Below the pieces are notes generated by a model that saw only the letters and a program-made list of their open reading frames with translations, was not told the DNA's origin and did no database searches. A DNA stretch of 52,057 nt, taken from Moniliella sp. 'wahieum' (lineage: Eukaryota). Shown here piece by piece: positions 2,692 to 43,858 of this stretch; the stretch's first letter is position 1, and each line of letters begins with the position of its first letter. The stretch lies in assembly GCA_003971905.1 (NCBI GenBank), contig RSEE01000051.1:434001-486057 (forward strand). Direction: 5' to 3'. Both the position numbers and the translations under genes were made by a program.

Positions 2692-5457
2692 TTAGCGGGT
2701 CTCCAGGCTGGATGCGCGGGCTCCCATGATATCAACCAGCCGCTTCACCCCAAACCACCATGCAGTTCGGCCAGTGCGGAGTTTCATGTCGGCTTCCCTC
2801 GCCATCTCTCGTGCGGTCGTCATTTGAATTGAGGATCCACGGATCGTGATGATCGCTGCCGAAGATGGATCGAAGGGTTCATCAGTCAAGCGCTGTTGCT
2901 GCGCGCGGTAAATCTCAGCTTCGGCGTCTGCTTCTGAGTCCTCCTCGACTTCACGGATTGCCTCCTCGGTGGGCTCATACCACGCTACGTCCCGAGCCAA
3001 TTCGGGACGCGCCTTGCCCTCGATCCATTGGCAGCAACGCAGGGCGAGACGCGTAGCCCGGCACCGGTCCAAGGGAGAAGGTGTCCCACCTTGCAACGTA
3101 TGGCCAAGCGATGCAGAGCGAGCATCAAACAAGGGGTGACCCTCTTCCTTGAAGATGGATGTAAGCACGTCCGTGGTGAACACTTTGCTGGAATGGTCGT
3201 TGCGGAGCACGAGGCGACCCTCGGACTTGCTTGCTTCGTCCAGGCTGTACCTCTTTTTGAGCCATTCCACGTCTTTCTGCAGCTGGAGGCTCAAACCCAT
3301 CTCGGGGATGTAGGTCAGAGAGGCATCGGTGGCCAAGCCTCCGAGCACGGCCAGATATCCACAATTGCCCCCCTGCGTCTCCACCACAACACACGGTTCC
3401 GACTCGCCCGCGCCGATTGCTTGATCGCATCGCAGGCTTGTACCAAGGCGTTGAGGGAAGTATCACACCCAAGGGAGAAATCGTTGAGAGGCACATTGTT
3501 GCTCAGCGTGGCGGGGATGGCAACAAGAGGGATACGGTAGGCAGGGTACTGACCCCGAGCATCGTCCATCAGCTTGACTGCATGGAATGCCTCGAAGCCC
3601 CCAATGAGCATCAGACCATCGAGACCATGGTGCTGCAGCTTGCTTGCTACAGCCCCATAATCAATCGAGGGGAGCACACGGTTGGTTCCCAACTCGGAGC
3701 CGCCACGTACGGTCCAGTTATCGACGCGAAGCCAGTCAACCTCTTGCACATTGTCTTCCAGCAGGCCTGGGAAGCCGTTGGAGATCAAAACGGGAACATG
3801 ACCTCGGGCAATAAAGTACCGGACCATGGTCCGTGTAGCCGCGTTCATTCCGCCGGCAGGAGCACCAATGTGCATGATTCCCACCCGCATCCGACTCTCC
3901 TCATCGACCTTGTAGGCAGGGTTGATCTCAGAGATGTACTTCCAAGCGCTCAAGTCCTCAGCAAACGTCGCCGCGTGCTTTGAGGGCGTCACCGAACCGC
4001 TTCTCCGCAATCGCTTCCGCCACAGCTTTGGTCTGCTCAATCGCATATTTGAGTGGCACACGGATAATCTTGTTTTCCCGTGTGCCAATAACGTACGAGG
4101 GCGTCTCGGGTGTGCCTGAAGCAGAGCCTTGACCGCCTCGACAGCTTGGAGGGTAGATAGAACACGATCATTGGCATCGGGGCTCCCGCCACGCTGCGTG
4201 TGACCAAGTGTGGTGACCCGAGTGTCGAGGCCAAGCTTGTCAGATAGGACGTGAGCGATATCGGTCGCCTTGATTGGGTTCAAGTTCTTGTCGATCGCTC
4301 CCTCGGCGACAATGACGATTGTCTTGCGCTTGCCTGCCTCGCGGTGCTTGTGCAGCACCCGACACATTTCCTGGCCCATCCGTGCTCTCCTTCCTCGCCC
4401 CCCTCGGCTTCGGCATCGTTGCACAGAGGCGGCTGTTCGGGGATGAAAATGTAGTCGGCGCCCGTGGCAATGGCGCATTGCAGGGCGATCCAACCACAGT
4501 TGCGCCCCATCACTTCCACCACAAACGCACGCGAATGCGAAGCGCGGTAGAAGAAATGGAGTCGACCGCCTCACAAGCACGGGTGAGGGCAGTGGAGCAG
4601 CCGATGGTCATGTCGGTGGTGGCCAAGTCATTGTCGATCGACCCGACCAGACCAACGATACGGAGGTGCTTAAACTTGTCGTACTGCACTTGGGTGATCT
4701 TGCCTTCGGCAAGCAGCGCGCTAACGTGGTCTGGCCATTCCTTCCGGAGAATGTCGGTACCAGTCAAACTGCCATCGCCACCCACCACGGCGAGACAGTC
4801 GATTCCATGGGAGATGAGGTTGAATGCAGCTTGACGCCGGTACTCGGCTTGGCGGAACTCGAGGCAGCGTGCGGTACCAATCAACGTACCACCCTAGTGA
4901 GCAGTGTTAGTGTACGAGATTCGGGTGAAAAGGGGCAAACGTACCTGTTCCGACCATCCGCGGACATCGTCCCAGCCCACGCGGATAATATACCGCCCTT
5001 TAAGGCCCGTGTCAGCCGCTCCTCCCACGCCCTCTCGCAGGAGCTCTCCGTATCCATAGGTGGGCACAAAGCGTTGATGCTTGTGGTGGTAAGGTTTTTC
5101 CCACGGGAAGCGATAGCCAGCACCACCGCCAATGGAAAGACTGGGAACGTGGTCGGCCGCGTGAATGTTAGGCGTCATCGCCGGACTGGGCATGGACGAC
5201 TGCACAGGGGTCGGCTGGGGACTGGTATGGGTGGTGGCCGATTCGGCATTCGTGTTTCCCTGGACAAGGCCTGACAGGCCCTCGCGAATGACATAGGCCT
5301 CGCAGCCCTTGTAGAGGGCAAACTTAACCACTGCCCGCACCGCCGCGTTCATCCCAGCGGCGTCGCCGCCAGAGGTCATGACGGCGATGCGGGTCTTGGT
5401 TTTCTGGTTGGCGCCGGGCACAGCCGAAACAGAGCGGCTCTTGGCGTGTAAGGACAT
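2692..5457 (-). CDS. PFK1: ATP-dependent 6-phosphofructokinase (eukaryotic two-half type)
   Basis: [124 protein letters not shown]. Intron 4894-4944; several indels. Confidence 0.96.
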
Positions 5458-17330: not shown

Positions 17331-18088
17331 CACATCACCGATTTATCAATCACTAACACTGAGATCATTGAAACGTTATACATCCCGCATGCTATCCTGG
17401 AGAGTGCGAGCTGCAGTAAATGCCGGATGGGCTCAATGGGTTCAATGAGCGAGCAACCTTCTCGCGAATGGCATAGACGACCGAACGTCAAGTTTCGCAA
17501 CCTTGGTGTGCGATGTTCTCCAAAGCAAGCTTCCACCTTCATAAGTTGGAACCTGTTGGTTGGCACTCTGTTCTCACAGCGAAAGAAAACCCAGCCAGAT
17601 GCCGCCTTGGTCACATGCACATGTCACACTGGGATAAGCGTACGCCACCCTGGTGGCGGCTGTGATTAAGTGATTCATGCCTGCGCCAAGCTAGGCCAAG
17701 CTCCTCATCGATCGTCACGCGTCCTTACCACGCCTCGTTGCTGCCCCATTCCGCACCGCCACGGTCCTATTCCGCCGCGCTGGGGTAAATATGAATGGGC
17801 GATTTCATTTTTATCCCCCTGCGCAGGCGTGCACGGGTGCACGGGCCTGGGAACACACGTCACACTGCCCCCTTGCTCGGTGGGTGTGCTGGGACGGGGC
17901 AGGCGGGGCGCGGGCACAGGGGCACTTGCTTACCCCGACGCGCAGCACATGTCAGCCAGCCTGATTTGAGCCGGATCATGTCAGCCGCGGCCCGTAGTTC
18001 GCAGCATCGTCCCAACGTTCCCCTGCCTTGGCCGTTCCGCGGCCATCCTTGGCTTTGCGCCCCCACCTCCTGAGCTCGCGCGGCCGCC

Positions 18089-20195
18089 ATGTCGCTTCAG
18101 GTCAACTTGACCTCTCCCCAGATCCGCACCGCCTATGAGGCCGTGCGCAATGGCTCGGAGGACTACTCATCCTTTCGTACGAGCGCGGTTTCCAACGACC
18201 TCCGTGTCCAAGCCGAAGGCAGTGGCTCCCTCGCCGACGTTGCCGACGAGTTCAACGATGGCAAGATCATGTACGCCTATGTGCGTGTCACGGATCCCAA
18301 CACCCAGCTCCCCAAGTTCGTGTTGATCAACTGGTGTGGCGAAGGCGTGCCGACGACCAAGAAGGGGCTCTTCCCCTCCCATTCCCAGGCCGTCGCCGTT
18401 TTCTCACCCCGGCCCACGTGACCATCCAGGCTCGTGACGACGATGATGTCGACCCCAAAGCCATCATGAAGAAGGTGACCGACTCGTCGGGCGCCAAGTA
18501 TTCCGTGCTGGTGACGCGGCCCATGCCCCCCGACGCCTATTGCCGCCGTTGGGACGGCCTACAAGCCCATTGGTACGCCCGATATCAAGGGACCAGGCCC
18601 AAGCCAAGCCCGAGCCAATTACGCCTACTGGTACCGCGTACCAGAGCAGGAAAAACGAATTGGCCGAGATTCGTGCGCGCGCCGCGTCCGGACGCCTGGA
18701 TGAGTCGGCATTGCCCGCCCCCGCCGCGCCTAGCAAGCCGACCCCTGCTCCGGCCATCGGTTCGGTGCCCCCGCCCCTCGTGGATTTGGGGCGTCAAGAC
18801 AGCGCCTGCGGAGGACGATGATGATGACTTTGCAGCGCCAAGCCTTTGCCATTCGGGCGGCCAACGCGACCGCGACCGCAGCCACCGCAGCACCCGGTGC
18901 GTTCCGAGGTCCTGCTCCGGTCGTGCGCGGTCCGGCGTTTGGTGCACCCAACCGAGTGTGACACGTTCCGTGCCGCCTCCTGCTGCTGTTCCGGCTCTAC
19001 TCCTGCTCCGGCGCCGGCTGCGCCCAAGCCTAAGGTTGAGGAACCCGAGGAGGCCGACCGGATTCAGCAGTGGGTACCACCTACGAACCGTCAAGCTCAA
19101 GCCGGGCAAGTTGGCCATGAACCGTTTCCCCTTCAACCAGCCTGCTAACCTGAGCCGGCTCCTATCCCGCGTGCCACAACACTGGCAAGCTGACCTGGTC
19201 CCAGCGCCAGGAACAGGCGCGCAAAGCTCGGGAAGCTGAGGAGGCCCAATCCGCCGCTTCGCTCGAGTCACACCCAAGCCTACTCCGTCGTTTGGGGTGT
19301 GGCTACGGGTGCTGCGGTCGGCGCTGGCGCAGCTGCTGGGTTTGGCGCAGCACGGGCCATGTTCAACCACTCGCAAGAAGAGGAGGCAGCTCCGGCCCCG
19401 CCGCCGCCTCCGCCGCCCCCCTGCTTTTGCTGCTGAGCCTGAGCCCGAACCGAAGTCGCCGCCGTACCTCGTCGCTGGTGCCACGAATCTGGGTGGACAA
19501 GGCCCGTGGGCGATTGCGGTGATGACTATGCCGCCGAGGAAGAGGGGGAGCTGACTCTGGAGGAAGGGAGAAGGTGACCAACTTGGACATGACGGATGAA
19601 GGGTGGTGGTCGGGTACGGCGCAGATGGAACGACAGGTCTGTTCCCGGCATCGTATGTGTGGAAGGTGTGCAAGAGCACAGAAGAAGGAGGCCGTCCGCC
19701 GTCCGGCCGCCTCCGCCGCCTGCGCCGGTCCAAGTGGAGCCGGAGGAAGAGGCAGCGCCGCCTCCGCCGCTCCGCCCCGCCTCCGCCTCCTATGCCTCGG
19801 CCGAGGTGGAAGAAGAGGAGCGCTGCACCTCCCCCCTCCTCCTCCGCCGCCCCTCCTGCGCCCGTGCAATGGAGGAAGAGGAAGCCGCCCCGCCTCCTCC
19901 GCCTCCGCCTCCGCCGCCGCCCCCTGCCCCGGCAGCAGAGCCGGAAGAAGATTTGGCTCCGCCTCCACCGCCGCCGCCGCCTCCCCCTCCTGCTGCTGCC
20001 GCTGCATCGGCCGACCAGGGCCAGACAGCGGTAGCGCTGTACGACTACGAGGCGGGCGACGAGACAGAGCTGTCGTTTGCCGAGGGCGACGAGCTGATCC
20101 AGATTGAGTACCCGTCGGACGAGTGGTGGCAAGGCCTCAACCCTCGGACGGGAGGCGAGGGTACTTCCCTGCCAACTATGTCGAGCGCTAAGCGC
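18089..20195 (+). CDS. ABP1: actin-binding protein Abp1/drebrin-like (ADF-H + Pro-rich + two SH3)
   Basis: ADF-H domain: EFNDGKIMYAYVRVTDPNTQLPKFVLINWCGEGVP...HVTIQARDDDDVDP..IMKKVTDSSGAKY. SH3-1: DEGWWSG..GLFPASYV. SH3-2: TAVALYDYEAGDETELSFAEGDELIQIEYPSDEWWQG..FPANYV. Confidence 0.92.
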
Positions 20196-20924
20196 TAAGC
20201 GCTAACCTGAGCCATCTGAGCCTCAGGCGGCAGCCAGGTGAGCCATGCCTGCTGCACATGCAACCTGCACCTTGCCAAAGCTACTAGTAGCCAAAGAGAT
20301 TGAGTTTGTCTCCCCCAGACGGTTGTGCGATGTGGAGCATCAGGCAGGCAGAAGACCATCCGACTGGATGGAAATCGGGAATTGCGCGTGGCTGCTGTAG
20401 GTTATAGGTGGGCCAAAAAGGGATAGATGGGATGGGCGATGGGGGTGACAAGATCCCATGGTACACGCTGGTGCATGGCATTCCAGCGCAGCGCACCGAT
20501 GCACCGCGCGAGCAAGCCGCAACAGTGGCGCAGTGCTGGACAGTGCTATCGGCCGGAGCTGGCGCAGGGGCCTAGCCTGTGAACGTGGCACGTGGCAGCG
20601 GGATCACATCGATCACACTTGGCCCTACTGTGGCGGCCAGGCGGGAATGCAACCCTAGTGCAGGTCGTCGACATTGCACGGGCGAGACGCTACCATGCTT
20701 CATCAGCCAGCGCGCAGCGTATCAGTTGGGCATCGAATTGAACGTTGAACTTGAACGGACTAAACCTTGAACGTTTGAACCTGACTACTGATGTACTGAT
20801 GTACTGGCGAGGCTAGGCAGCCATGAAATGCATGACGTGGGTACGTTGGGCACGCTCTTGTCCGCCGCCCACACCACCGCCACCGCCACCGCCACCGCCA
20901 CTCCCCCCTCGGAGCGAGTCCGCC

Positions 20925-24756: not shown

Positions 24757-27700
24757 ATGAGCGCCATTTCACTTCCTACCCCTCAGCTGTCGAACCCGGA
24801 CTGGGCCGACCAGCACCTTCCATCCCCTTTTCCTAAAGACAGCATTACTTTCACACGTGCCTCGCAATTGGCCAACGAATAACTGAGCCAATACCAGCAC
24901 CCTTTACCATATTCTTGAGGATAACAGTCCTTTGGTGGCCAACACGATGCGTCTGATTTTCAAACACGTCTCACATTATCTCAGGCAAACTATCAACTCT
25001 TGAAGAAAAGATCGTCAAAATGGTCGGCGATCCTACTAAGCGTCTTCCCAGCGATCCATATGTCCAGTCGACAGTGGTGCGCCACTTTGACGAATTGCGT
25101 AGTGTGTTTCGTCGCACTTTGATGCATTTTTGCGAACCGTTTTGGTTCTCCGCTTCTTCTTCTCAACATCTTCCGCAACATCGGAACCGGAGGATCCCGT
25201 TGCGACCCCACGGCCGGCGTCGTCACCTGTGCCACGACGAATCCATTGTTCATACTCCTGTGGCAACAACGACACCATCGCTTCCTCCTCCGATTGACGA
25301 TGCAATCTTGTCAAGTTTGACTAAGCTTTTCCGTTCAGGCGTATCCTCCGAATTCTCGTGACTACAGCCGAGAAACGTTGGGGTACTGACGTGGGCATTG
25401 CCGCTGCTATGGAGGTTATACAGCAACTGCCTTCCGACACTACGCATTCTGCGGCTTCACTGAAGATACATTCCCTGTTTCTCCCTCTACCGTCACTTTG
25501 GATGAAGCAGTCGACTACTTTCGCACCGTCTTCATTGACGGTGGAACGCCTTGGAACCGAATTCACGAATGTGCCGTTAGCAAATATGGTTCGGACCTTG
25601 GGCACCAAGCACAAAGGTTTTGTTCCGGCGACTCCGTGACGAAGGCAAGGATCCTGAGACTTTGTCCGCTCTGAAGACTCTGACGTCCACTTTGGACAAA
25701 GACGACAAGTTCAAGGCCGGACAACCATTTTGGCCGTGGGCCAACCAGGCCCTTGCGACTATGGATCGGGCAATCCCGGGAGCACGGGAGATCGTAGAGC
25801 ATGGACCTACCGGAGCTGGTTATAAGGCCGGTATGGACCGTAAGCTTTTTGATCCCCTTTATGTCCGACTACATCGCACTATTCATGATTCATTTCATGA
25901 AACTGAAGTGGATTCTCGTGCATCATCCCTGTTTGCTCTACTTCGGGAACGCTACGGTCATATCTCCCCATCGGATAAAATCGACACGTTGACAGACCTC
26001 CTGAATCTTTCCTTTGTTTCACGGACGGGGGCCCAATTTGTTCAACAGCATCGCTTGTTGTACAAGACCAACTTGTGGCTGGATTCTCCTCTGCCAGACA
26101 CCGTCCTCCGCACAGCGGTCATTAACGCGATACAGAAGAACGGCATGTTGATTTCCTATTCCGACAAAACATACGAGGAACTCTTGACGCTTGTGGCAAC
26201 TCACTCATCTGCTGTTCGTCGTGCGGCTCGTCTTCTCTCTCTTCTGTTCGCGGAACCGATCATCGCACCAAAAACTCTGGTTCCCGCGGCGGGTCTTCCA
26301 AAGGTGGACGCTCGTCCCGAGGTGACACCTCTTCTTCGGCCCATGCTGCTTCCCTAAGTGGCAATACCGTTCATGAGGGTGGAAGCAGTAGTGCAGAACG
26401 CATTCTGGGTTACCCCCCTTTGCACGGTACCGCACAGAGGGCTACCAATCCTTTAGGCCTCTCTGTTCCCTCAACCAATGCCTCCTACCATGTGAGCACA
26501 AGTGGGGCCGTGCCGCTCGTCTCCGCCAACCAGCAAGGACCTCACTCTCAGGGACCGGCACCTAATAGCGCAGGGGTGAGTTCTGCTGCGTCCACTATTG
26601 CCCCCTCCCGTCATCGGGAATAGGGATACGCGGGGAGTCTTCCGCCAGCCGCCCTCCCTGCGCAACATGATTCGGGCGCGCGCCCGTCTGTCTTCAAGGA
26701 TAAGAACGCATTTACCTCACTACGTCCTAGTCGTGCTCCTATAGTCCTTGCAGGGCGGGTAGTGCAAGCCGATGGCATTGGCACTGTCTCTTTCTATATC
26801 CATACCTGTACCGGTCCCCCCTGTATATGTTCAACTCTCCGACTCTTTCTATTGTTTCTTTTTCCTTACAACTTGGTCAGTGCGTACCAACTCTCGATGG
26901 CCGGGATCGAGAGTTTAGTGGCAGCATGGGGCCAAGGCATCTACCTTTACCGAACGGGTGACATTCCCCGCCTTGTTACGGATGCTAGCTACAAAATGTT
27001 TATCGAACCACTCCTGCCTTCCTCTTCTCCTTCCCCTTCCTCTTCTCCCTCCCCTTTCCCTTCCCACAATGCCCTTTCAATCGAACCCTCTAATACTGTT
27101 TTGGACAAGGTTCAACGTGTCCATGAACAGTGGAATCATATCGCCCTTGACCAGCTCCCACACTTAACCGCATCCATGTCCTTTCCTTATCGTGTTCTAC
27201 CTCAAGATGTCGCGACTGTTCGTCCCCACTGGCATTGCCCTTCCTGTATTCTCTCGCATGCCACAGCCCCTCCTCATTCCCTTTCTCCAACTGCTACCAG
27301 AACCACCCGACCTTTCTCCTTGATCCACATCGATGTGGTCGACATTCCTCGCCAAGGTGGCGGGGGACACGGGTGGGGTTTGGTTATCGTCGACGACTTC
27401 ACCCGGTACGTTTTCTTCCTTCCTCTTTCTTCCAAAGGTGAAGCAACTGCATCTCTTCGTCACTTTATTACCCGTGAGCAGCGTCAGCGCCCTGAAAGAC
27501 CCCTCCAGGTGGTCCACTCTCCGACAATGCTCCAGAATTGATCTCCGCTATGATCGATTTTTACGACGAACAAGGTATCGTGAGTGAACCACCAATCCAG
27601 GCGAAAGTGCTTCGAATGGTATCGCCGAAAGAGCGATCCGGTCCATCATGGATCGTGCTCGCACCTTGCTCGCTTCTACTCGCCTGGATCCCGAAGATTG

Positions 27701-30126
27701 GTGGCATCATGCTCTTCACGCTGCTGCGTACACACACAACCTTGTGCCTCCGAAGGGTTGGGGGGGCAACAGCCGTTTTGTACGTTACCACGATTTCCCT
27801 CCCTCCCTTCCTATGCATGGTTTCGGTACCTTAGCATACCTTCACCTCTTTTCCAACCAGCGTGACGGCGGCAAGTTGGGTCCGCGGGCCGTTCCTGCCA
27901 TGCTCATCGGATACGACGAGCGCCGTGGTCGTAAGGGTTGGCTTTTGCTCTGCATGGCGGCCCTGGCCTAGTTTACTATCGCTGGAAGAAACCTTTCAAG
28001 TGGACCAACCTGTCATACACTGCAGAACATCCCACACATTTCAACCTTATTCCTTCCAACATTGTTTCTCCTCACGGGGCCGGGGGGGTTGAGGAGACAC
28101 CGGACGCAAATTCTCCAAACCTTCCGACTTTACCTGCTCCTCCTACTGTCGCCCCTCCTCGTCCTCCTCCTCTTACTGTAGCCCCTCCTCCTCTTACTCC
28201 CATTGTATCCCCACCTCCTACTGATGCCGCCCCTGTTCCTAACCAACACCAACCTGCGCTGCGTCGTAATCCCGGACGCCGAGAACGACTCCCCGCCCCT
28301 CCCCTTGATCTCTCTCATCCTGCTCCCGATACCCCCAGGATCCATCTTTCATTCCCCTTGCTCTAAAGGTTCCCACCCTCTTTCATCCTCCTGTCTCACT
28401 TTCCACTCTTGACTTACCCACTTTTGTCAACATCTTCGGTCCCATGCCCAATACTTCCCTCATCCCCGACTCGGACCACACTCAACCTCTCTTGCCCTTG
28501 CTCTCGACCACGCGCGAGCGAGGACGCACTCCTTCTTACCACCGATGGTGTTCCCTTGGCGCCCAAGTCCGTGCGGGCTCTCGTCGGCCACCCTGCATTT
28601 GATGTCCTTGCTGCCATGCGCGTTGAACTGACGCGTTTCGATTCCCGCAAGGTGAAGGAGGTGGTGCCCATTCCTCCGGGGGCACGTGTGTTACCCGGTA
28701 TTTGGGTCCTCAGTACCAAGACGGATGCTGAGGGTCGCTTTGTCAAGTATCGTGCGCGTTATGTAGTGGGAGGACATCGCCAGCTTCCCGGCTCCTGGAC
28801 CAAGTCATTTGCTCCCGCGGTTCGCACCTCCGCCGTCAATACTTTGATCGCCGTCTCAGAGGCGGAAGGGCTCCAGCTCTTTACAGCCGACGTTGAGGCG
28901 GCGTATCTGTATGCGGACGTGACCGAAGAGGTCTATGTTAGGCCGCCTCCCTTTTTCCCAGAAGGGAAAGGCAAGTGTTGGAAACTGAAGAAGAGTCTTT
29001 ATGGTCTCCATCAAAGTGGGGCCAATTTTGGTGATTGGCTGCGTACTTTCCTTGTGACCGTCTTGGCTTTACCAGTCTCAAGTCGGAGCCTTGCCTCTTC
29101 ATTCGTCGTACCCAACCCTTGGATCTCATTCTATTGGCCATCCACACTGACGATTTTCTGTTGCTTGCCGTTCGCGGGACATCTACGACTCCTTCCTTGT
29201 TGAGCTTCGCCGTCATATCGAGATTAAATCCAATGGCCCACTTCGTTTCCATCTCGGGTGCCAGTACGACCGCATTGATGGCGCCTCTATGTGAGCCAAC
29301 CCAAGTTCATTGCTGAAACGCTTGCCACCCACGACCTGGTTCACGACCATCCTCGACGTCTCCCGCTCAGTCACACACTTCCTCCTCCCCTACGCCCCGA
29401 GCACCAACCACGATCCACACGCGACGAGAATCACGCCTACCGTTCTATGGTCGGATCTGCCATGTGGTCGGCTCGCATGTCTCGTCCCGACACCTTGTTT
29501 GCCGCCACCTTCTTGGCTCGCTTCTTAGATGACCCTTCCCGTGTTCACCGTGACGCTGCCGTTGGCTTGTTGCGATAACTGAAGGGTACTGCTGACCATT
29601 CCCTCCGCTTAACACCTGACCGCGCAAGACCCCTCCTTGAACTGCATACGGATGCTTCTTTTGCTTCGGACAAGCGCTGCTCACGGTCTGTTCCGTGTAC
29701 GTTGTGTTTGTGTATGGTGTGCCTGTTTCGTGGAATACCAAGACACAGAACCAAGGAGTGAGCAACATAGCCGCTTCCGAATACTTGGCAATGGGTGATG
29801 GTTTGCGCGATGCACTCTTTGTGCGCAATATTCTTTTTGAGCTGGGTATTTGTTCTGCTGAACACCCAATTCAGCTCTTTGTCGACAACACTGCCGCCAA
29901 GGCTCTTGCCGAGAAGCTTGGCAGCCTGGGTAAGATCCGCGAGATCGATGTTTGGTACCACGAGGTGCGAGAACGCATCCATTGTGGCGAGCTTGTTGTT
30001 CATCATGTCCCAGGCGTGGATCATTTATCTGATTGGTTCACCAAACCTGTTGGTCTTCCCAAACTCCTTTCCACATCTCAACAATTCGATTTGGCTCCCC
30101 TTTCTTCTCGTTTGGTTTCTTCTTAA
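24757..30126 (+). CDS. copia Gag-Pol polyprotein (frameshifted in this assembly)
   Basis: Gag with a probable degraded CCHC knuckle near 26240, protease HDSGA (about 26665), pre-integrase HEQWNH...CPSC, rve PFSLIHIDV..VIVDDFTRY, RT ADVEAAYL / LKKSLYGLHQSG / IHTDD, RNase H TDASF, ASEY, VDNTAA, SDWFTKP. Confidence 0.93.
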
Positions 30127-30398: not shown

Positions 30399-31391
30399 CT
30401 TAGTTCCAACACGCTCCCTACCGCCACAATGGGAGCGGGTAGAGCACCAATGTGGTTAGATACCCACCTCTCTCGCAGCAACCTCGCCACTTCCTTCCGC
30501 ACTTCGTTAAAGTGATTTTTTGTGGATGCCTATAAATACGTCCTCTTCACCCACAACCCCTATCGGTCCCCATAACGGCCCTATATGTACCGAAAGGAGA
30601 ACCAAGAAATGCAACAAGAGATTGATGGAAGCAATGTGTGTTGGTTGTGGCACGGCAGTGTGTGTTCGACTATTACATCAGGCTCTCTTCTATGCCTGTG
30701 CCACCACGTATTGCCCTTGTTTACCCACAACCAAATCCGGATTTTGGCTTCAAGCTGCCCACCCTCTTCTCTCGTTCCTCTGGTTGCCAGAGCAATGGGG
30801 ACGAACGGCAATTAAAATGTTATCAAGGTGTAATATCCGAGAGCTTTGTAGTACGGTCTCTGGAAGGGAAAAGCCATGTGCGAACGCTGGTCCATTGAAA
30901 GCATGTGAGCAACTAGTATAGCAGCGCAGGCAAGGTGTGGGGTATATGAGTGGTGAAGCAGTGATGTAGGTGTGATGACATCACTAAGGGAGTGACGTAA
31001 CGCATCTCATCCCAAGCCCCAACAATCAGTACTGAGACTCAGTACGCAGGCCCCCTGGCGGGGAGGAGTTACTATTGCGGCAAGGCAGTGGGAAAGTACG
31101 ATGGTGATTTAGATGTGACATGTGACATGCGACACTAGAGAAACCAAGCACAGGGCCAGTGTAAGCGCATGCGCGTAGTCAGCCAGCATAGTTCGTTCTC
31201 ATCACGTTTTTTTGCCAAATCACCCCGATCGAAACAAAGGGGCGGGCGCGAGGGTTTGCCAACGCACAGCTGACCGACGCGGCCAGCAGACGCCATTCCC
31301 TCAGCTGTTGCTCTGCGCAACGCCCAACCATCCAACGCTTCGGCGTGTCCAGCTCTAGCACGTCGCCGCTGGCCCGCCCCACGCGCCCTCC

Positions 31392-32635
31392 ATGTCTACT
31401 GAACAAGCGGATGCAGCGCATTCCGCCCACCATGTCGATCCTCCCTCTCATACTTCCACCCCGCCTCAGGGGGACGACGAGACGATGAGCAACTCGGTTC
31501 TATCCGCTCTAGACACCAGCCGGATGTCAAAGACCGACAAGCCCAAGGGCAAAAAGCACAAGACCCCGATTGACGATGCGGTGCGACAACGTATCTGTCA
31601 GCATGCAATGGCCAACCCAGGGATGAAGCAGAGGGATATTGCTGCACTCTTTTGTTTGGAACGGAGTACAGTGAGTAAAATCCTAAAAAACAAGGGCAAG
31701 TATTTGGCGATGCGAATCGAGGAACCTTTCCTTGATCGAGATCGGACGATTCGCCGCCCCATTCTCGAGGGTAAGCTGCTGGAGTTTGTGTATTGGATGG
31801 CATCGGAAGGCGCGCCGCCGCCGGACAATGACCTACTCCGCGCCAAGGCAACTGAGATTGACATGAGCCAGCGGGCGAGCCAACCACCAGGGGGGGACGC
31901 AAGTACCTCGGGCAACGATGTACTCACTGGCCCTCCTGACTATCCCTTTGTTCCTTCGGACACATGGCTTTCCTCATTCCGAGCGCGGCACCGTTTGATC
32001 AACCCCACTCAGGCGTTGGCGCCAGATGAGAGCACAAGCTCAAATGGAAAGCGAACTACGAGCACGCATCCCCTCATGCCTGCTGCCAAGCGCCGGTCCT
32101 CCATCCGGGACAACTCGGTACCCATGAGGCCAAAATCCAGCATAGCGAATGTGCCCAACCCGCAGCAGTCGCACTCTACTCCACCTCGGCAGGGGCCCAT
32201 CTCGTTAAGCGAGGCCGACTCCGCGTTGGCTGTACTGCTTCAATTTGTACGCGAACAGCCCGAGGACGTTTGTTCGCCTCAACACCACTTTCTCATGGGG
32301 CATCTACAAGCCACCATTTCGCGCCTCGCTGCTGCTCAGAACGGGAGCGGACAGTCTCCTCCTCCCCCCAACCAGGCGCAAGCCTCCCCACCTCATTATG
32401 CTCCCCCGAGTACCATTCCTTGGGCCATTGGACATGGCTCCGGAATCTCACCTCATCACCAGAGATCGCCCTCTTCTATGCAAGAAAATGGGAGCTCAAA
32501 ACGCACCGGGGACGATGTATCTCCTCATTTGGTCTCCGACCAGCACCGGCAATGGCGTCCAACTCGTTTGCTGCTTCAAACGAGTCTACGTCAAGGGATG
32601 TACCGGCTCCAACACTGCCCCCCCATTCATCCTAA
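31392..32635 (+). CDS. CENP-B/Tc5-type tandem HTH DNA-binding protein, copy A (no DDE domain); 3' end approximate
   Basis: IDDAVRQRICQHAMANPGMKQRDIAALFCLERSTVSKILKNK (psq-type HTH); RPILEGKLLEFV...NDLLRAKA...FVPSDTWLSSFRARH (HTH_Tnp_Tc5-like); C-terminal helix ISLSEADSALAVLLQFVREQ. Confidence 0.85.
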
Positions 32636-33185
32636 ATATGTTAGTTCTACTCCTGCCTGCTTCATAGGATGTTTTTATAGGGATGCCAAGAGTCAGGATT
32701 TGGATGGCATGCCATCAGGATGGCCGGGCAGCAATGTTAGAGAAGTGGTGGGCAGGAGGAACAGACCGGTGGCGGGTTATCGGTTACCCCGCTACCCGGT
32801 TATGGGGGGGTGCCAAAGACCCCACAAAGAAAGGCATTAACCAGATTGAAATTTGAAACGGAGACGTGCACGCCGTCGCGTGATGAGCTTGGGCTTCGGA
32901 CGCCATCAATTTGACACCACCTCACTTGTCTTCACCCCGCCCGCTTCACTTCTTCTTCCCCTCCCTTTTCAGGTCAATTCAACTCGCAACCAACTTCGGC
33001 AACTGGGATATATATGAGTGGCAGAGTCCGTGCCGGATCAATCGCTTGTGTGTTGCCCTCACTATCTTTTCAAGTTTCAGGCCCCACATGCACACACAGT
33101 TATATTGTGGAGAAACGCGTTGCCTTCAGCTGAGAGACAATATATACTTTTCTCAGTACTAAGTGCGCCCCTCCGTTCTTGTTTC

Positions 33186-34646: not shown

Positions 34647-36403
34647 ATGTCTGCCGACCAAGTGGAGGCAACGCACTCCGCTCCCCCTCCCCCAGCGCCC
34701 GCGCCCCCATCTACGGTCGTGCCGGAGCCGACGTCCTCGTCTGCATCGGCGTCCGATTCCGCACCCGCGTCTGTGCACGGCAGCTCTGACATTCCTACAT
34801 TAGCCGCTGTCCCGACGTCCACCCCAGAGGTGGATCCTTCCATTTTGCGACCCGTATCAGCCCCAGAGCCAGGTCTAAAAGTAACGCCAAAACCAGATTC
34901 GGTCCCTGTGCCTGAAGCGGTGCCAGTACCAGAGCCAACATCTGTCGTAGGAGCAGTGCTGTTAGCACTGAGCCTCCCTCGCTTCGTGGCGTCGTTCCAA
35001 ATGCCCATGCCATCCACCCTATGTATGCCACCTCACCTGGCCATGAAGTATGTGTCGCTCGCGCTCCTTTGCCCCAACGCTAACCGCGTCACAGCCGGGC
35101 TACGCGCCACTTCCGGGTTTTGGCTTAGATCTAAGTGCGTCGCCCCCACAGCCCATTCCCATCTACACACCCCACACACGTTTCCACCCTCCACAGGGGT
35201 ACGACGAGACGATGAGCAACTCGATTATATCGGGCCCAGACACAAGTATGATGTCAAAGACTGGTAAGCCCAAAAGCAAAAAACACAAGACGCGGATTGA
35301 CGACGCAGACCGACAACGAATCTGCCAGCATGCGGTGGCCAACCCTGGAATGAAGCAAGGGGATATTGCTGCGCTCTTTTGTTTGGAACGGAGCACAGTG
35401 AGCAAAATTCTTAAACACAAGGACCGGTACTTGACGATGCAGGTTGACGAAACCTTCCTTGATCGGAACCGGACAATCCGCCGCCCCGCTCTCGAGAGTA
35501 AGCTGTTGGAATACGTGCGTTCGATGGCGTCGGAAGGCGTCCCTACCGGACAATGACCAACTTCGCGCCAAAGCGACTGAGATTGACATGAGCCAGCGGG
35601 CAAGCCAACCGCCCGAGGGAGACGCAAGTACCTCGGGTAGCCATGTACTCGGGCTCTCCTGACCCTCCCTTTGTTCCTTCGGACAAATGGCTTTCCTCAT
35701 TTCGAGCGCGGCACCGCTTGCACAATCCCGCTCCATCGTCAGACTCGAGTGAGAGCAAAAAGTCCACTGGGAAGCGAGCTGCGAGCGCGCATGCACACAT
35801 GCCTCCTGCCAAGCGTCAGTCTGGCAGTTGGAACTATCCCAGTCCCCTGTACCCGGGGCCCACATGCCCCTATGGTTCACCCACCGCAGTGGCACTCCAC
35901 CCCACCTCCCCAGGGGCCCGTCTCGCTCCACGAGGCCGACACGGCCTTGTCTACCTTACTTCAGTTCTTACGGGAACAGCCAGAGGGGATTTGTTCGCCC
36001 CAGCACCACTTTATGTTGGGGCACCTGCAAGCCACCATTTCGCGCCTCGCTGTGGCCCGGAACGGACCCGCTCCTCGGCAGGCACAGGCGCAGGGGCCCA
36101 TGACCTCACACTATACTTCCGCGGGCACCCCCCAGTGGGCGGTGGACATGGGTTTGTTTCCTCCTCCCCCAAGTCTTGCCTGGTATCACGCCAGAGAACA
36201 GGACGTCAAAACGCGGTGGGCTCGATTCCTCCGCCTCGCCGGCGTCAGCGCATACAGCAGCGCTTGCAGCAGCGCCCACATCCGCGGCTGCTTCGGTTGA
36301 GACCACGCGGGATGTGCCTCCTCCGCCGGAGCCAGCTTCGCATCCTCGTTCGCCTAAAGATGCTAGATTTGCTCCTGTCTGTTGGGGGGGTGCTTCTCCA
36401 TGA
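34647..36403 (+). CDS. CENP-B/Tc5-type tandem HTH protein, copy B (paralog of copy A)
   Basis: MSADQVEATHSA vs MSTEQADAAHSA; IDDADRQRICQHAVANPGMKQGDIAALFCLERSTVSKILK; FVPSDKWLSSFRARH; VSLHEADTALSTLLQFLREQ. Intron 35048-35094. Confidence 0.85.
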
Positions 36404-36846
36404 ATGCTATGGGCTAGAAGGCGGTTCGGCGGCGTGTGGGGTGGCCCTCGCTTGCGTTTGCGTCGCATAGGAGTGGAGCGGTGGACGGGCAGACCCCGGC
36501 CAGCAAACGACTGGGCCGAAAGTGCAATTTGAAAGTGGAAATGGCGACGCGTGCTCCCAGGTGGGGCTGTTGCATGTGGCGTGTGGCATGCGACATGTGG
36601 CATGCGACACGTGGCCTGCGACTAGGGACCGCCACGCGGGGGAGTGTATTAGCTAAGCACGGGGCCCGTGCACCCGGAGTACTAGCACGCGCAGCACATA
36701 ATGGCGCCCTGTCAACGTTTGGCTCGCCCTAGAGCCTCGACGAGACGATAAGCTGGCAAGCGTCGCCAGTGCAGAATACACGAGCGAGTATGGTGCGATC
36801 GGTGTGCCTCAAATACTTCCGATAGTAAAAAGAGCGGTAAAAAGAT

Positions 36847-37476: not shown

Positions 37477-39106
37477 TTACATTTTGTGTGTCTTGGGCAT
37501 AAACCGCAGTGCTTGACGTACACCCAAGTCGCGAAGAATTTCCTCTGTGCCACCAAGAATAGCGTCAAACTTGGTCCCCATCTGCGCTGCCGAGACAAGC
37601 GCGCCCAGCCCTGTCTTGGTCAAGCCACGGCCTCCAAAGAGGTTAATGGCCTCGTTCGCGCGTTTTAGTGAGATCTCGGTTGCCCATGACTTGAGCAGGG
37701 CCATGTGGCCGGCAAGGTACTTGGACTGTTCCTTGTAGCATTTGGTTCATCTGGAACGTGACCGCCTCCAGCCAGGCTTGCGCAGCTTCGCACTCGGACA
37801 TCATCGCACCCAGTTTTTGCCGCACCACCGCCTGCGATGTCAGCGGTTTTCCGAAAGCCTTGCGCTGCGAGGCCCAAGTGATGCTCTCTTCAAGCATCAG
37901 TCGGGCTCCACGAATCGTACCGCAGCACATGACCAGCGCTCATGGTTAAAGTTTGAGAGAATGACCATGATGCCCATTCCCTCCTCGCCAACCAAGTACT
38001 TGGGGAACATGCACATCGTCAAACGTGACAAATGCTGTGCCCGCGGTTGTGGAGTACTGAGTCTTGATTTGCTTGGTTTCAACCCCCTCAATGCGAGGAA
38101 TGCAGATAACGCCAAAGCCGCCCTCCTCTCCCTCCTCGTCAATAAGCTTGACGAGGGTGGTAAAGTAATCAGCAAAGTGGCCATTGGTAATCCACTAACT
38201 CGTCCAAAAAAACACACGGTCAGTTTGCATCCCCTTTTTTCGGCACACAGAGCGGACACGTACCTTTTTGGTACCGTTGACAATGTACGACCCGTCTTTT
38301 GCTTCCTGGCGGTGGTACGGATTCCCATCACGTCCGACCCGGCAAACGCTTCGGTCACAGCAAGGGCGATGAACTTGTCGCCGGCCAAAACAGATTCAAT
38401 AATCTCCTTCTGCAGATCCGGCGAGCCAAAGTTGACAATGGGGGGCAGACCAATCACCATCCCGCCCTGCAGACCGTCCATCCAACCACGGACACCTGAG
38501 CGTGCCAGCTCTTGGGTGATGATCAACTCGTGGAAATAATCAAACTCCTCCGGCTTGATATCAGCAACGAGTTTGCGGCCCTTAAGCACCTTGCCCGGTC
38601 CCATGCGCATCGCATTGATGCCACGGGCACCCATGTCCTTGACGAGGTCAATGGGCGGCCGCTTGCCGTTAGCTTCACATTCCGAGCGACTTCAATCACA
38701 TTGGCTTCGATGTAAGCGCGATCTCGCGTTGAAGGCGGTAGTGAGACTCTTTGAAGTAAGGCGTCTTGAATACGGGGGCAGCCATGTAGGTTCGGCAAAG
38801 GGGACGGGCGAAACGGCGCCAAGGGCTTTCGCCTTCACATCGGCTCCTCGTCGACAATCTTTCCAACAATCAATCGCTTGGCCATGGGCTTGTCGAGAAT
38901 GTCGCGGCGATGCAGACCAAAGAAGGTCTCCGTCGCATCGTCACCCGCAATGTCCTGGGAGTAGAAGACACTCTCACCACCGGGTGAAGCTCGGCGAACT
39001 TGCTGACATTGTAGATGGTCGAATCAATAATGATCCAGGTGTCGCCGGCTTGTTGTGGGCAGCGACCTGCTCGCGGTGTGTACTCTTTTGAATTCGGCGG
39101 GGGCAT
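37477..39106 (-). CDS. acyl-CoA dehydrogenase with N-terminal cytochrome b5-like domain
   Basis: DTWIIIDSTIYNVSKFAELHP (b5), MRMGPG, FDYFHELIITQE, GMVIGLPP, ALAVTEAFAGSDV, NGTKK|WITNG (intron 38195-38263), ILSNFNHERW, FGGRGLTKTG, FDAILGGTEEIL. Confidence 0.93.
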
Positions 39107-39846
39107 GGCAGAGTGGATGGGAAGGGAAGGTGGTGGGGGCGGGAGAGGAGAAGCGCGGAGGAGCTTTGTAATGATTAGCCGGAGGCGGAGGCGGCCGATA
39201 GGCCAGAGACAGACCTGATGCCTGTCGGGGCTGACGCTGACGCCTCCCATTCAGAGCCTGCTTCCGGTAGCAGAAAAAGCCGGCGGAGCCGGGCGGCAGC
39301 GAAACAAGCGACAGCCGGTGGTTCCTGTGAGCCGCAAGCTGCTGAGACACGATGCCCGCTCCCTTCACGCGTCCCGGAGGGATCTTTGCAAGTTGTAATG
39401 ACGTACACAGCCAATGCGGACACCAATCGGCATTTCAAATTTCATGCATGACCGTTGACGACGTTGACGCGGGACGGGACGCAGGACGCTTGACACTTTG
39501 AAAGTCAATCGAAACAGGGTTGTTTAAACGACACCAGGTAGCTACACTGGCTCTGTGCTTGCCTGCTGCGGCTTCGCCTTCCTAGGGTTGGGCACATCGC
39601 CAGTCTCACCTCCAGCTCGGCACTGCCCGCGACTGGCGGCTGCGCTAGGGTTGGTGCCCCCCTCTGCCTCGGCATACCGATGCTGGCCGTGCGGCTGGCG
39701 TGCCGTTGCGGACCACCACACACAAAGGTCAGTACCGCTCACCCCGAGACGCCGGTACCACCACCATGGCCAGGAAGCACATGAACTTGCTCCCTTGCTG
39801 GTGCTCCGCTTCGAGCATACAGCTGACCCCGTGCAGGTCTTGTGAC

Positions 39847-40285
39847 ATGCAGATCTTGTCAACTCTGTCCAGGGAAACACCCTGACCCTGGCGGTGGCGC
39901 CTGAGGCTACCGTCCAGTCGGTCAAGGCGCTCAACTTTGCGCGCGCCGGCATTCCCGCTGAGGAGCACGTCTTCTCTACGCTGGAAAGCAACTGCTTGAC
40001 GACCGTACCCTGGCTGACTACGGATCCAGAGGACTCTACGTTGCACATGTCGCTGAGGTATGCTTGCCCCCATCTTCCCGTGCTGTCCGAGCTTGTGTGT
40101 CTGAACTGTTCCGGTAGCCTCCTTGGTGGTATCATTGAGCCTTCGCTCAAGGTTCTTGCATCTAAGACCAATGTTGAAAAGCAGATCTGCCGCAAATGCT
40201 ACGCCGCCTCCCTCCCCGGGCCACGAACTGCCGGAAGCGTAAGTGGGCCATCGTCGCAGCTGCGCAAGAAGAGGTTCTTAAGTAA
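39847..40285 (+). CDS. RPL40: ubiquitin-like domain/60S ribosomal protein eL40 fusion (UBL strongly diverged)
   Basis: eL40 [34 protein letters not shown] after a GG junction. Introns 39728-39836 (5' UTR) and 40058-40117. UBL rebuilt across 3-4 single-base gaps. Confidence 0.92.
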
Positions 40286-41225: not shown

Positions 41226-41274
41226 TCAGAGTGGTCGACGGAGACAAGTCGGAAAGCTTGGCCCAATCAGGCTC

Positions 41275-41307
<33 letters not shown>

Positions 41308-42692
41308 TTGCTTGATCTCCCTCCCCCTGATGGCTGGGGCCCAGCTAGCAGGTTTCCAACAAATTGATCCACCTCCAACTCAATTTCAGTGGTAGGCCCC
41401 AGAACTGATTTTCCACTCTCCCCCTCCTCGGATCTTCGACTAAGCATATCAGAGTGGGACCGCCAAGGGAGGGGAACGCGGTGTTGGCTCTGAGCTTGGG
41501 CGACAGTCAGCATGGCGGGACAGAGTGGTCCTCCTCGTTTATGTCCCAGCTTGCGCTGATGGTCCGCCACCGCACACATATCGCACCGCGGCGACTGAGG
41601 CGTGCATATCGTTTGTCCCAGTCCCACGAGAAGAGGGTTGATATGAGACCAAAGGATGCGGGGTAGGAATGCTTCCAGTTGGGCTCGGGTTGTCTCGGGG
41701 TGCTCTTGGGTTTGGTCAAAGGTTGGGTCCACCCCAATCGGCTGGCAATCCGATGAACATGGGTGTCAACCCCAATTCCTTGTCCTTCTCCTACGGATTG
41801 GAGAAAGAAAGGCCATTTTAGGCCCGATTCCTTGAAATGCAGTCAACTCCTCCAATGTGTGAGGCGGGCGACCACGAAACTCGCCAGGTCGCTCCAACAA
41901 CTGCATCGCTACACCTCGAAGGTATCCAGTCTTGCGGCGCCAAAATCCAACTTGACCAATCGCTTGTTGAATAGTTTCGTCCGAGGCAGCGGCCACCGAC
42001 TCGGCTGTCAGCCCACCAGGTAGCGTTTCCTGTAGCGTTTTGACCGCAGCCGCCGTGACGGCATCTTTAGTCTGCGACGAGAGGACCAGGGCCACCAACG
42101 TGGCAAACTCTCGCCGAACCAAGAGCTCTTGGGCAGAGTACGTCTCGCCTGGTTCCAACTCCAACCCATTGCTTGCCGCAGGGTCCGTTCCCGTTCTAGG
42201 CCGTGCAGAAGCACGAGACGCAGCAAATTCCCGCACCGAGGTGGCACCTGTGGCTTCGCACCCAACCGTGTCCACTGGCGCTGCCATCCAGTCCCTTTCC
42301 GCACTCAGAAGGGCGTACGTGGTCTGCCATCCCGTAGGTGCAGGCCAGCTTGGCGCATTGGATGCACCCGACTCAGATTTGATCTTCAGCTTACTAGGGG
42401 AACGGTTGGTTCGAGACTTCTTACCACCACGGGGCGGTGGAGGCTTGGAATCCTGGTCGACGCTAGGCTGAGTTGGTTGAGATGGGACAAAACCAGGGGA
42501 GCGCTTGCGCTTGGTTGGTGATGGATTGGATGGGGTGCTAGGGCCATCAATCTCTGCCTTCACATCCGATACGGCCGTGCGACGCACCACCCTCGGTACC
42601 ACTGTTGGTGTCGGTGCCGAGGCGGGAGGGATGCTGGTGGATGCTGGTGCGGGCTCAAACAACGTACGAAAGGCCCGGCGTGTGGTAACCAT
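41226..42692 (-). CDS. NTH1: endonuclease III-like DNA glycosylase/AP lyase (HhH-GPD, FeS); 3' end uncertain
   Basis: [71 protein letters not shown]...PRCDMC...LCP. The (CCTGAG)n run suggests an EPEP tail in another frame ending near 41065. Confidence 0.93.
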
Positions 42693-43858
42693 GGTGTAGC
42701 GCGGCACCACAAAGACGCGGGCGAGGGCAAGGGCAAACAGTGGGATCAAGTGAGCTGCGGCGGCGGCGGCGGCAGGCAGGAAGAGCCGGAGCGGGTTGGA
42801 CGTCGGTGGTGGTCGCTGGAAATAACCCTTGGGAGATTGTTTGAAAGTTGAAGGGCACACATATTGAGGCTCATCTTCAGCTTCAACTTGCAACTGATTG
42901 TTTACGATGCACACACACAGCGTGCTAATATCGCTTTTTGCACCGTCGTCCCACAATCCCCTCGTGGCTGATACTCGCTCACGCGCTCACGTCTCATGGG
43001 AGAATACGACCAATTTCGTAAAGACAAAGGCCGGCTTGTCCTCCCCTCGTCGGCTGCCAGCGGACAAGGAACTCGAATTCCGCATTTGACCAGTACCATC
43101 AACTCTCTCTGTTGTGTGGAAGCATCCAGATGGCGATTGCACTGCAGGAGTCCAGTGGTAGGGACAGAGGGGACCAGAACCGTTGTCGCACAATCGTCCA
43201 GTGAGTGGCATTTTAGAGCAGGGAAAACCTCATGCTAGTACTCATACCCGCGCCTTACTGGCATTTTCTCTCATCTGCATCTCGTCCGTTGGCCTCATTT
43301 TTGCATGTCGAAAGCCCACTCGGGCCATACATACTACCATGCCTCGTCGGCTATATCGAGCCATGAATGGGGATTCAAAATGCCTCATTCCGGCTTGGCC
43401 CCAATAAAAGGTATCTATACAACTCTGTGGGTAACGGGTAATGAGACTCATGTCTCGTCCAGAATCGAGGCTGATGACTAGTAGGAAACAGAACAGCTGA
43501 ATTGGTAACCCAAAAAGTTGAAGACGAGGGGAGAGAGAATTTTGACAGTGCCATCAAGTACACGTCTTTGGACCATTACTAGTCAAGAGAGGAATCGAGT
43601 ATGCGGGGTACCACATTCGTGGGACCCTCGTCCAGTCGCCTCCGCTTCATGTTGGGCCCATCAAGTGGATATGCAGGCAACTCATGAGGGTGTTGGCTGG
43701 GAGGGGGGTTCAAGGTAATATCGTCAACCTATTACCATACTACCTCCTCACCCCAACCGACTGATTCGTCGGCCGTCGAGTCGCTCCAAACGGAAGCAGC
43801 CAAAACTGGTTTCGGCTGGGGGTGAATGTAAGTCAAGAGATAAAAATAGGGTAAGGGC

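Follow-up and report, generated by a model that had tools for sequence, protein, structure and literature searches.

A diverged ubiquitin-like domain fused to ribosomal protein eL40 in a fungal genome

The 52,057-nucleotide stretch of Moniliella sp. 'wahieum' DNA analysed here, hereafter called the window, carries a gene in which a diverged ubiquitin-like domain (UBL), apparently derived from ubiquitin, directly precedes the ribosomal protein eL40. We consider it likely that the locus is a genuine Ub-eL40 gene (UbL40 / RPL40 / UBA52) in a dikaryan fungus, probably a basidiomycete, and that its ubiquitin moiety escaped conservation before a small clade radiated, was kept as a ubiquitin-fold domain and would act as a cleavable leader in cis, the single-base gaps that interrupt the gene in the present sequence being errors of the assembly. 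Few proteins are as conserved as ubiquitin, and the ubiquitin-eL40 fusion is nearly universal.

Structure of the UBL-eL40 gene

The gene occupies positions 39847-40285 of the window on the forward strand and is made of two exons, which join a UBL of 76 codons directly to an eL40 of 52 codons. Its parts are the following:

39729..39837, forward strand: putative 5'-UTR intron (GTCAGT ... CTGAC ... CAG), read from the sequence and ending 9 nt before the ATG
39847..40057, forward strand: exon 1, UBL residues 1-71 and two bases of codon 72, placed by frameshift-aware alignment to P0009, P0102, P0103 and P0020
40058..40117, forward strand: intron of 60 nt, GTATGC..CGGTAG, of the GT..AG type, phase 2 in codon 72
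40118..40130, forward strand: beginning of exon 2, comprising the final base of codon S72 and the codons for L73, L74, G75 and G76
40131..40285, forward strand: eL40, 52 codons and a TAA stop at 40283-40285, placed by the PF01020 match and by alignment to P0020 and P0203

With its ATG at 39847 and the last base of G76 at 40130, the gene lies where a preliminary description of this DNA had located it, 40130 being the end coordinate given there, and the splice sites, which had been described as intact, are indeed kept in the GT..AG intron at 40058-40117. The codon for S72 is split across this intron, AG standing before it and C after it, and is followed by LLGG and then by IIEPSLK; the C-terminal tail of the UBL therefore reads LSLLGG, and cleavage is expected after G76. 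Once eight missing bases are restored, the gene comes to 129 codons, stop included (76 + 52 residues), and yields a precursor of 128 residues, in which a single N-terminal unit of the ubiquitin fold stands directly before eL40. Many basidiomycete gene models of Ub-eL40 (P0001-P0003 and others) leave an intron unspliced at this same site in codon 72.

As for the surroundings of the coding sequence, the 15 nt upstream of the ATG, with the acceptor included, translate alike in P0103, the frame of which begins upstream. A divergently oriented gene for a cytochrome b5/acyl-CoA dehydrogenase fusion lies just upstream, and a convergent Nth gene on the other side. Two frames of the opposite strand, 39545-40198 and 39732-40277, lie over the gene; they have no family match and were rejected as chance frames in G+C-rich DNA.

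The eL40 part is recognised on its open frame by the Pfam family Ribosomal_L40e (PF01020) with E=4e-11, and its residues 1-46 are those of P0020 at 39 of the 43 readable positions, as counted from the alignment. Regarding the cysteine pairs, CRKC and the cysteine of NC are in frame, and the codon of the fourth cysteine is itself broken (TG-). An unusual stretch of this eL40, TNVEK (ASKTNVEK), is also present in Mixia osmundae P0012, beside canonical ubiquitin, and is therefore taken as a lineage variant rather than as a trace of decay. The same stretch of Mixia osmundae P0012 is, besides, a possible hint to the wider lineage of the window. The residues of eL40, like the shared intron site, speak for Basidiomycota, a leaning that the choice of candidates by words may have biased; in cluster searches (Atlas) with other genes of the window, Nth gave an ascomycete cluster at 0.95 and a basidiomycete cluster at 0.93, and PFK mostly chordate clusters. 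In the UBL part, the Pfam ubiquitin matches reach 17.1 and 23.2 bits, just under the cut-off of 25.4, because the frame in which they are found is broken; P0009 matches the window by tblastn with E=2e-17.

Divergence from ubiquitin and the closest relatives

In comparison with canonical fungal ubiquitin (P0020), the UBL is identical at 34 of 65 readable positions (52%), which bears out the rough half identity estimated by eye in the preliminary description. Canonical ubiquitin is near-invariant and has seven lysines, the L8/I44/V70 patch and an LRLRGG tail, whereas in the window UBL four lysines are gone, K6, K11, K29 and K33 being replaced by N6, N11, L29 and R33, V8/L44/S70 make up the patch and the tail is LSLLGG, with the S72 of the latter supplied by the split codon; on lysines, patch and tail alike, the earlier reading was accurate. 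K27 and K48 are kept, and K63, which falls in a break in the window, is present in 3/3 relatives. Judging from the comparison with the canonical fungal protein, the UBL almost certainly differs from the ubiquitin that the organism's other loci specify.

These relatives were found in searches of protein sequences. A first search, for which candidates were chosen by words, gave 101 matches among 127 candidates, nearly all of them canonical Ub-eL40, and contained a single protein with the peculiar residues of the window, P0009 (82 residues). When P0009 was used as the query, 101 matches were obtained among 102 candidates, the close relatives being just P0102 and P0103 (85-86%) and the next matches standing at 61%. 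No member of the window UBL family appeared among the named, annotated proteins matched in these searches. In all three close relatives (P0009, P0102 and P0103), the exon-1 frame is intact and the donor has the same position: they extend from the ATG as far as ...HMSL plus R, after which they either read through the intron or stop, so that the donor follows AG in all three as well. The second exon of the relatives was sought by comparing the window frame with proteins of fewer than 79 residues, and the 4 matches among 6 candidates were all canonical eL40 pieces; as exon 2 was recovered for none of the relatives, it is in the window only that the LSLLGG tail and the fusion as such are read.

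The relatives are 80-85% identical to the window and 82-86% identical to one another, and the family is 52-54% identical to ubiquitin. Among the family-invariant positions, 18 differ from ubiquitin and 33 equal it. Private residue changes number 4 in the window, compared to 2, 4 and 4 in the relatives, so that the window shows no acceleration. A tree was built from 20 ubiquitin-type rows, the window being excluded on account of its frame breaks; in it, P0009, P0102 and P0103 form a monophyletic group with a support of 100/100, and the stem of this group measures 0.70 changes per site against 0.05-0.09 for the tips. Such a long stem with short tips points to an early burst of divergence that was followed by constraint.

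The agreement between the window and its relatives also decides on a reading in which the apparent divergence is a sequencing artefact laid over canonical ubiquitin. Although the window is rich in indel errors, which is what would make such an artefact conceivable, the approximately 31 in-frame residue replacements are beyond the reach of indels, and the same replacements are present in three independent intact proteins. The artefact, to which we attach almost no probability at all, is thereby refuted, and the whole-codon substitutions on which the preliminary description insisted are upheld by the three intact relatives. As read from the aligned proteins, the divergence from ubiquitin is real.

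With regard to the fold, the Pfam ubiquitin family (PF00240) matches the relatives with E ~1e-21 and 72.6-76.7 bits, far above the cut-off. The AlphaFold model of P0102 has a pLDDT of 96.0 and a pTM of 0.82, the underlying alignment including ordinary variants of ubiquitin and hence being biased towards a ubiquitin-like model. When this model was compared with the PDB by Foldseek, the top listed matches were ubiquitin chains, nearly all with a TM of 0.92-0.98 and at ~57% identity. In the same line, the best 60 matches of a PDB sequence search are all ubiquitin or engineered ubiquitin, single units scoring ~79-81 bits. The relatives thus combine a PF00240 match above the cut-off with a ubiquitin-like predicted structure, the latter being that of the P0102 model. 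By its sequence and its modelled fold, both of which find their best PDB matches in ubiquitin, the UBL domain derives from ubiquitin.

Frame breaks in the gene and in its neighbours

Eight single-base repairs are needed to read the UBL-eL40 gene through, four in the UBL and four in eL40, and each of them makes good a 1-nt deletion:

39856/7 (F4), 39966/7 (Q41) and two within 40022-40031 (G60-K63), forward strand: bases missing from the UBL, from frameshift-aware alignment
~40203/4 (after Y24), 40244/5 (fourth cysteine), 40249-53 (H/S 41-42) and 40272/3 (terminal KKK), forward strand: bases missing from eL40, from the alignment and the translated frames

The preliminary description had rightly noticed single-base gaps in the UBL and had put their number at three; there are four missing bases, the stretch G60-K63 having 10 nt for 4 codons. 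It had also called eL40 intact, a statement that the four single-base breaks listed above contradict. Three of the eight breaks are necessarily contractions of runs of 2-3 bases, and another four may be. Reading along the shifting frame reveals no in-frame stop, and the start codon, the splice sites and the stop are all kept.

Breaks of this sort extend to housekeeping genes of the window, namely those for PFK, the cytochrome b5/acyl-CoA dehydrogenase fusion, Nth and a DEAD_2 helicase, which are interrupted by frame changes of a single base where no gap of intron size occurs:

2716-5394, reverse strand: PFK (phosphofructokinase), 795 codons aligned to P0206, the best match of its protein search, at 64% identity (49% by HMMER)
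37480-39250, reverse strand: cytochrome b5/acyl-CoA dehydrogenase fusion, with at least two frame changes
41229-42986, reverse strand: Nth-type DNA glycosylase, with two frame changes between ~41690 and 41800 and no gap in the matched human NTHL1 residues
49652-50930, reverse strand: DEAD_2 helicase, with at least one frame change

In the 2385 aligned nt of PFK, four frame breaks are robust (4545, 4118, 3972 and 3389) and four others, near introns, are doubtful; seven of these eight are 1-nt deletions. Indel errors in this assembly thus amount to roughly 0.2-0.4% per base and are biased towards deletions. Over 91 matched codons, a cofilin frame at 18074-18418 has no frame break.

The UBL-eL40 gene is more densely broken than these neighbours, with 8 breaks in 379 nt (2.1%) versus 0.17-0.37% in PFK and Nth, that is, 5-10 times as many, and by our own Poisson estimate a clustering of this kind has P ~1e-4 at a background of 0.35%. 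This density would be expected if the present copy were dead or dying, its breaks being real mutations and a functional eL40 gene, either canonical or another UBL-eL40 copy, residing elsewhere in the genome; the Copia-like and Tc5/pogo-like open frames at 26.6-36.5 kb point in the same direction, and the nearest transposon-like gene, ~3.4 kb upstream of UBL-eL40, was accordingly counted against the explanation that we prefer. Nevertheless, we hold a dead copy to be quite improbable. The eight breaks are exactly 1-nt deletions, the same kind as those of PFK; reading frame and signals are kept as described above; private residue changes amount to 4, in comparison with 2-4 in the intact relatives; and eL40 matches at 39/43 readable positions, whereas neutral decay lasting long enough for eight indels should also have left many substitutions and stops. 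Since all the breaks are 1-nt deletions and short-run contractions, stops are absent, the signals are kept and substitutions are not accelerated, error is favoured over decay, and the eight single-base gaps are most likely assembly errors and not mutations.

Some further observations concern the rest of the window. A Copia-type retroelement remnant is present at 26624-29200 on the forward strand, its integrase core, SH3-like and RVT_2 portions being found in distinct frames, and the HTH of Tc5 transposase is weakly matched by two frames at 31359-32837 and 35592-36467, both on the forward strand. Within the window, G+C content is highest at 18000-20200 (0.66); the cofilin/ADF frame at 18074-18418 and an SH3 domain frame at 19593-20195 possibly belong there to one Abp1-like gene, and the same region contains a 538-residue frame of the opposite strand without family match.

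Known divergent fusions and the presumed role of the UBL

According to the available portion of Dalhuisen et al. 2023 (PMC10457151), divergent ubiquitin encoded by UbL40 was formerly known only from Giardia, namely Giardia lamblia (Catic & Ploegh 2005, as cited there), to which the authors add the Vivax and Ovale lineages of Plasmodium, and divergence of the eL40-linked ubiquitin is described as extremely rare. The window gene is thus not as new as the preliminary description implied, all the more since L40 proteins of dermatophytes offer a further parallel. The Giardia and Plasmodium UbL40 genes resemble that of the window in being of the same gene type, with a diverged ubiquitin part, a conserved L40 and a predicted fold that is kept (PMC10457151, same portion). 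In Plasmodium, 14.5-30% of the residues differ from ubiquitin, and mostly all seven lysines and the 8/44/70 patch are kept (PMC10457151), whereas ~48% of the readable residues differ in the window UBL, four lysines are lost, V70 is changed to S, neither R72 nor R74 remains, and the gene belongs to a fungus. By sequence and model, the window gene has what characterises divergent ribosomal-fusion ubiquitins, that is, a diverged protein in the position of ubiquitin next to a conserved ribosomal part and with the fold conserved, and it is a more extreme case within the known, rare class of divergent UbL40.

Two other ribosomal fusions are worth comparing. Divergent ubiquitin encoded by UbS27a is widespread, occurring in Caenorhabditis and many protists (Jones & Candido 1993 and Catic & Ploegh 2005, both as cited in PMC10457151). 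There too, a ribosomal-fusion ubiquitin has escaped conservation, which is interpreted as a failure of gene conversion, but the partner is eS31/S27a, and the phenomenon is widespread where the L40 case is extremely rare; moreover, a chaperone-only role was proposed for the divergent ubiquitin encoded by Giardia UbS27a (PMC10457151, as far as the available portion goes). The second fusion is that of FUBI, to which the preliminary description had likened the UBL. FUBI is fused to eS30, found in Holozoa only and absent from yeasts, is 36% identical to ubiquitin with a single lysine, and is processed by USP36 (PMC8354635, in the portion available) and also by USP16 (PMC10611586). The FUBI-eS30 precursor (FAU) shares with the window gene a diverged leader, a GG end, a ribosomal partner, the requirement for cleavage, few lysines and the lack of established conjugation enzymes, and the pair FUBI-USP36 offers a precedent for the cleavage of a tail devoid of the arginines (PMC8354635, same portion). 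Identity with FUBI was rejected, the partner of the window UBL being eL40 and not eS30, and the best 60 PDB sequence matches being ubiquitin or engineered ubiquitin throughout; the domain is nearest to ubiquitin itself.

Dermatophytes provide a fungal parallel in three annotated L40 proteins:

P0030: Microsporum canis CBS 113480
P0038: Trichophyton interdigitale
P0042: T. benhamiae

Like the window gene, these encode a fungal UBL-eL40 of 128 residues in which GG is kept, R72 and R74 are both replaced and eL40 is normal. Their UBL is identical to ubiquitin at 41/76 positions (54%) and ends in LVLDLPGG, as counted from the alignment. N11, L13, P19, F31, R33, E40 and G60 are states common to the dermatophyte UBL and the window family, as read from the alignment rows; nevertheless, the two are identical at just 30/71 positions (42%), and the dermatophyte eL40 is of the ascomycete type. 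The tree of 20 rows does not join the two UBLs with support, both being on long branches, so that it bears out neither a common origin nor the independent derivation supposed in the preliminary description. No description of a fungal case of diverged ubiquitin on L40, be it the window family or the dermatophytes, was found in the literature searched; a published survey (PMC8122580) admitted only ubiquitin moieties with an identity of at least 80%.

As regards function, the 128-residue precursor would be translated and then cut after G76 by a protease of the deubiquitinase type, thereby freeing eL40 for the 60S subunit. The UBL would mainly be a cleavable leader that aids the production of eL40 in cis, and the supply of ubiquitin would rest on other loci. 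This scheme follows what is reported for yeast Ubi1/2, in which the ubiquitin moiety increases the output of eL40 in cis and has to be cleaved off for 60S subunits to be functional (PMC8122580, in the portion available). Since GG is kept directly before eL40 and the fold is kept as well, the same cleavage and the same leader role are predicted for the window gene.

Among the positions replaced in the UBL, residue 72 has a role in the choice of the E1 enzyme. More precisely, the C-terminal peptide, and residue 72 notably, sets the E1 choice between ubiquitin and NEDD8 (PMC3731359, in the portion available). Because S72 and L74 replace R72 and R74, S70 stands in the patch and four of the seven lysines are gone, the UBL is probably, to judge from these residues, ill suited to charging by the ubiquitin E1 and to the building of chains. 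The same residues argue against the idea that the released UBL is more than a leader, namely a new conjugatable modifier with an E1/E2 cascade of its own or borrowed from another system. Indeed, K27, K48 and K63 are kept across the family, as is the GG end, and the tree indicates constraint after the initial divergence; with these three lysines retained, a use as a modifier could still be accommodated. However, R72 and R74 are lost although residue 72 sets the E1 choice (PMC3731359), V70 has become S, and no candidate enzyme is present within the window, and we therefore give very little weight to this idea.

The leader role, to which we return, also has to be seen in the light of copy number, since a second explanation differs from the preferred one in this respect alone. 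It supposes that the gene is a functional extra, a relaxed or specialised paralogue beside a canonical Ub-eL40, in which case the organism would neither depend on UBL-eL40 for its eL40 nor be without eL40-linked ubiquitin. Many fungi do have two Ub-eL40 genes, for instance UBI1 and UBI2 in yeast (PMC8122580), and the absence of the family among the named, annotated proteins found would fit a gene missed by annotation as well as a rare paralogue. On the other hand, a tblastn search of the 52 kb window, which covers only part of the genome, detected no second ubiquitin or eL40 locus, and the diverged UbL40 of Plasmodium is the ordinary UbL40 gene (PMC10457151, in the portion available). Such a paralogue is possible, albeit doubtful in our opinion.

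At its boldest, the preferred explanation of a cleavable leader would mean that the only eL40 gene of a small, unannotated fungal clade bears a ubiquitin-derived domain which the E1 refuses and which is still precisely cut in spite of the missing R72 and R74. We think this rather unlikely to hold in full. If it did, these fungi would possess a protease that either does not require R72/R74 or has co-evolved, and the synthesis of eL40 would be uncoupled from the supply of ubiquitin; taken with the dermatophyte case, it would moreover imply a repeated loss of the ubiquitin identity of UbL40 in fungi. Already as they stand, the dermatophyte parallels suggest that such escapes are commoner in fungi than described. 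A fungal family that is about half identical to ubiquitin, has lost the arginines of the tail and has kept GG raises the question of which protease cuts a tail without R72 and R74, and constitutes a natural experiment in which the leader or chaperone role of ubiquitin may be considered apart from its role as a modifier.
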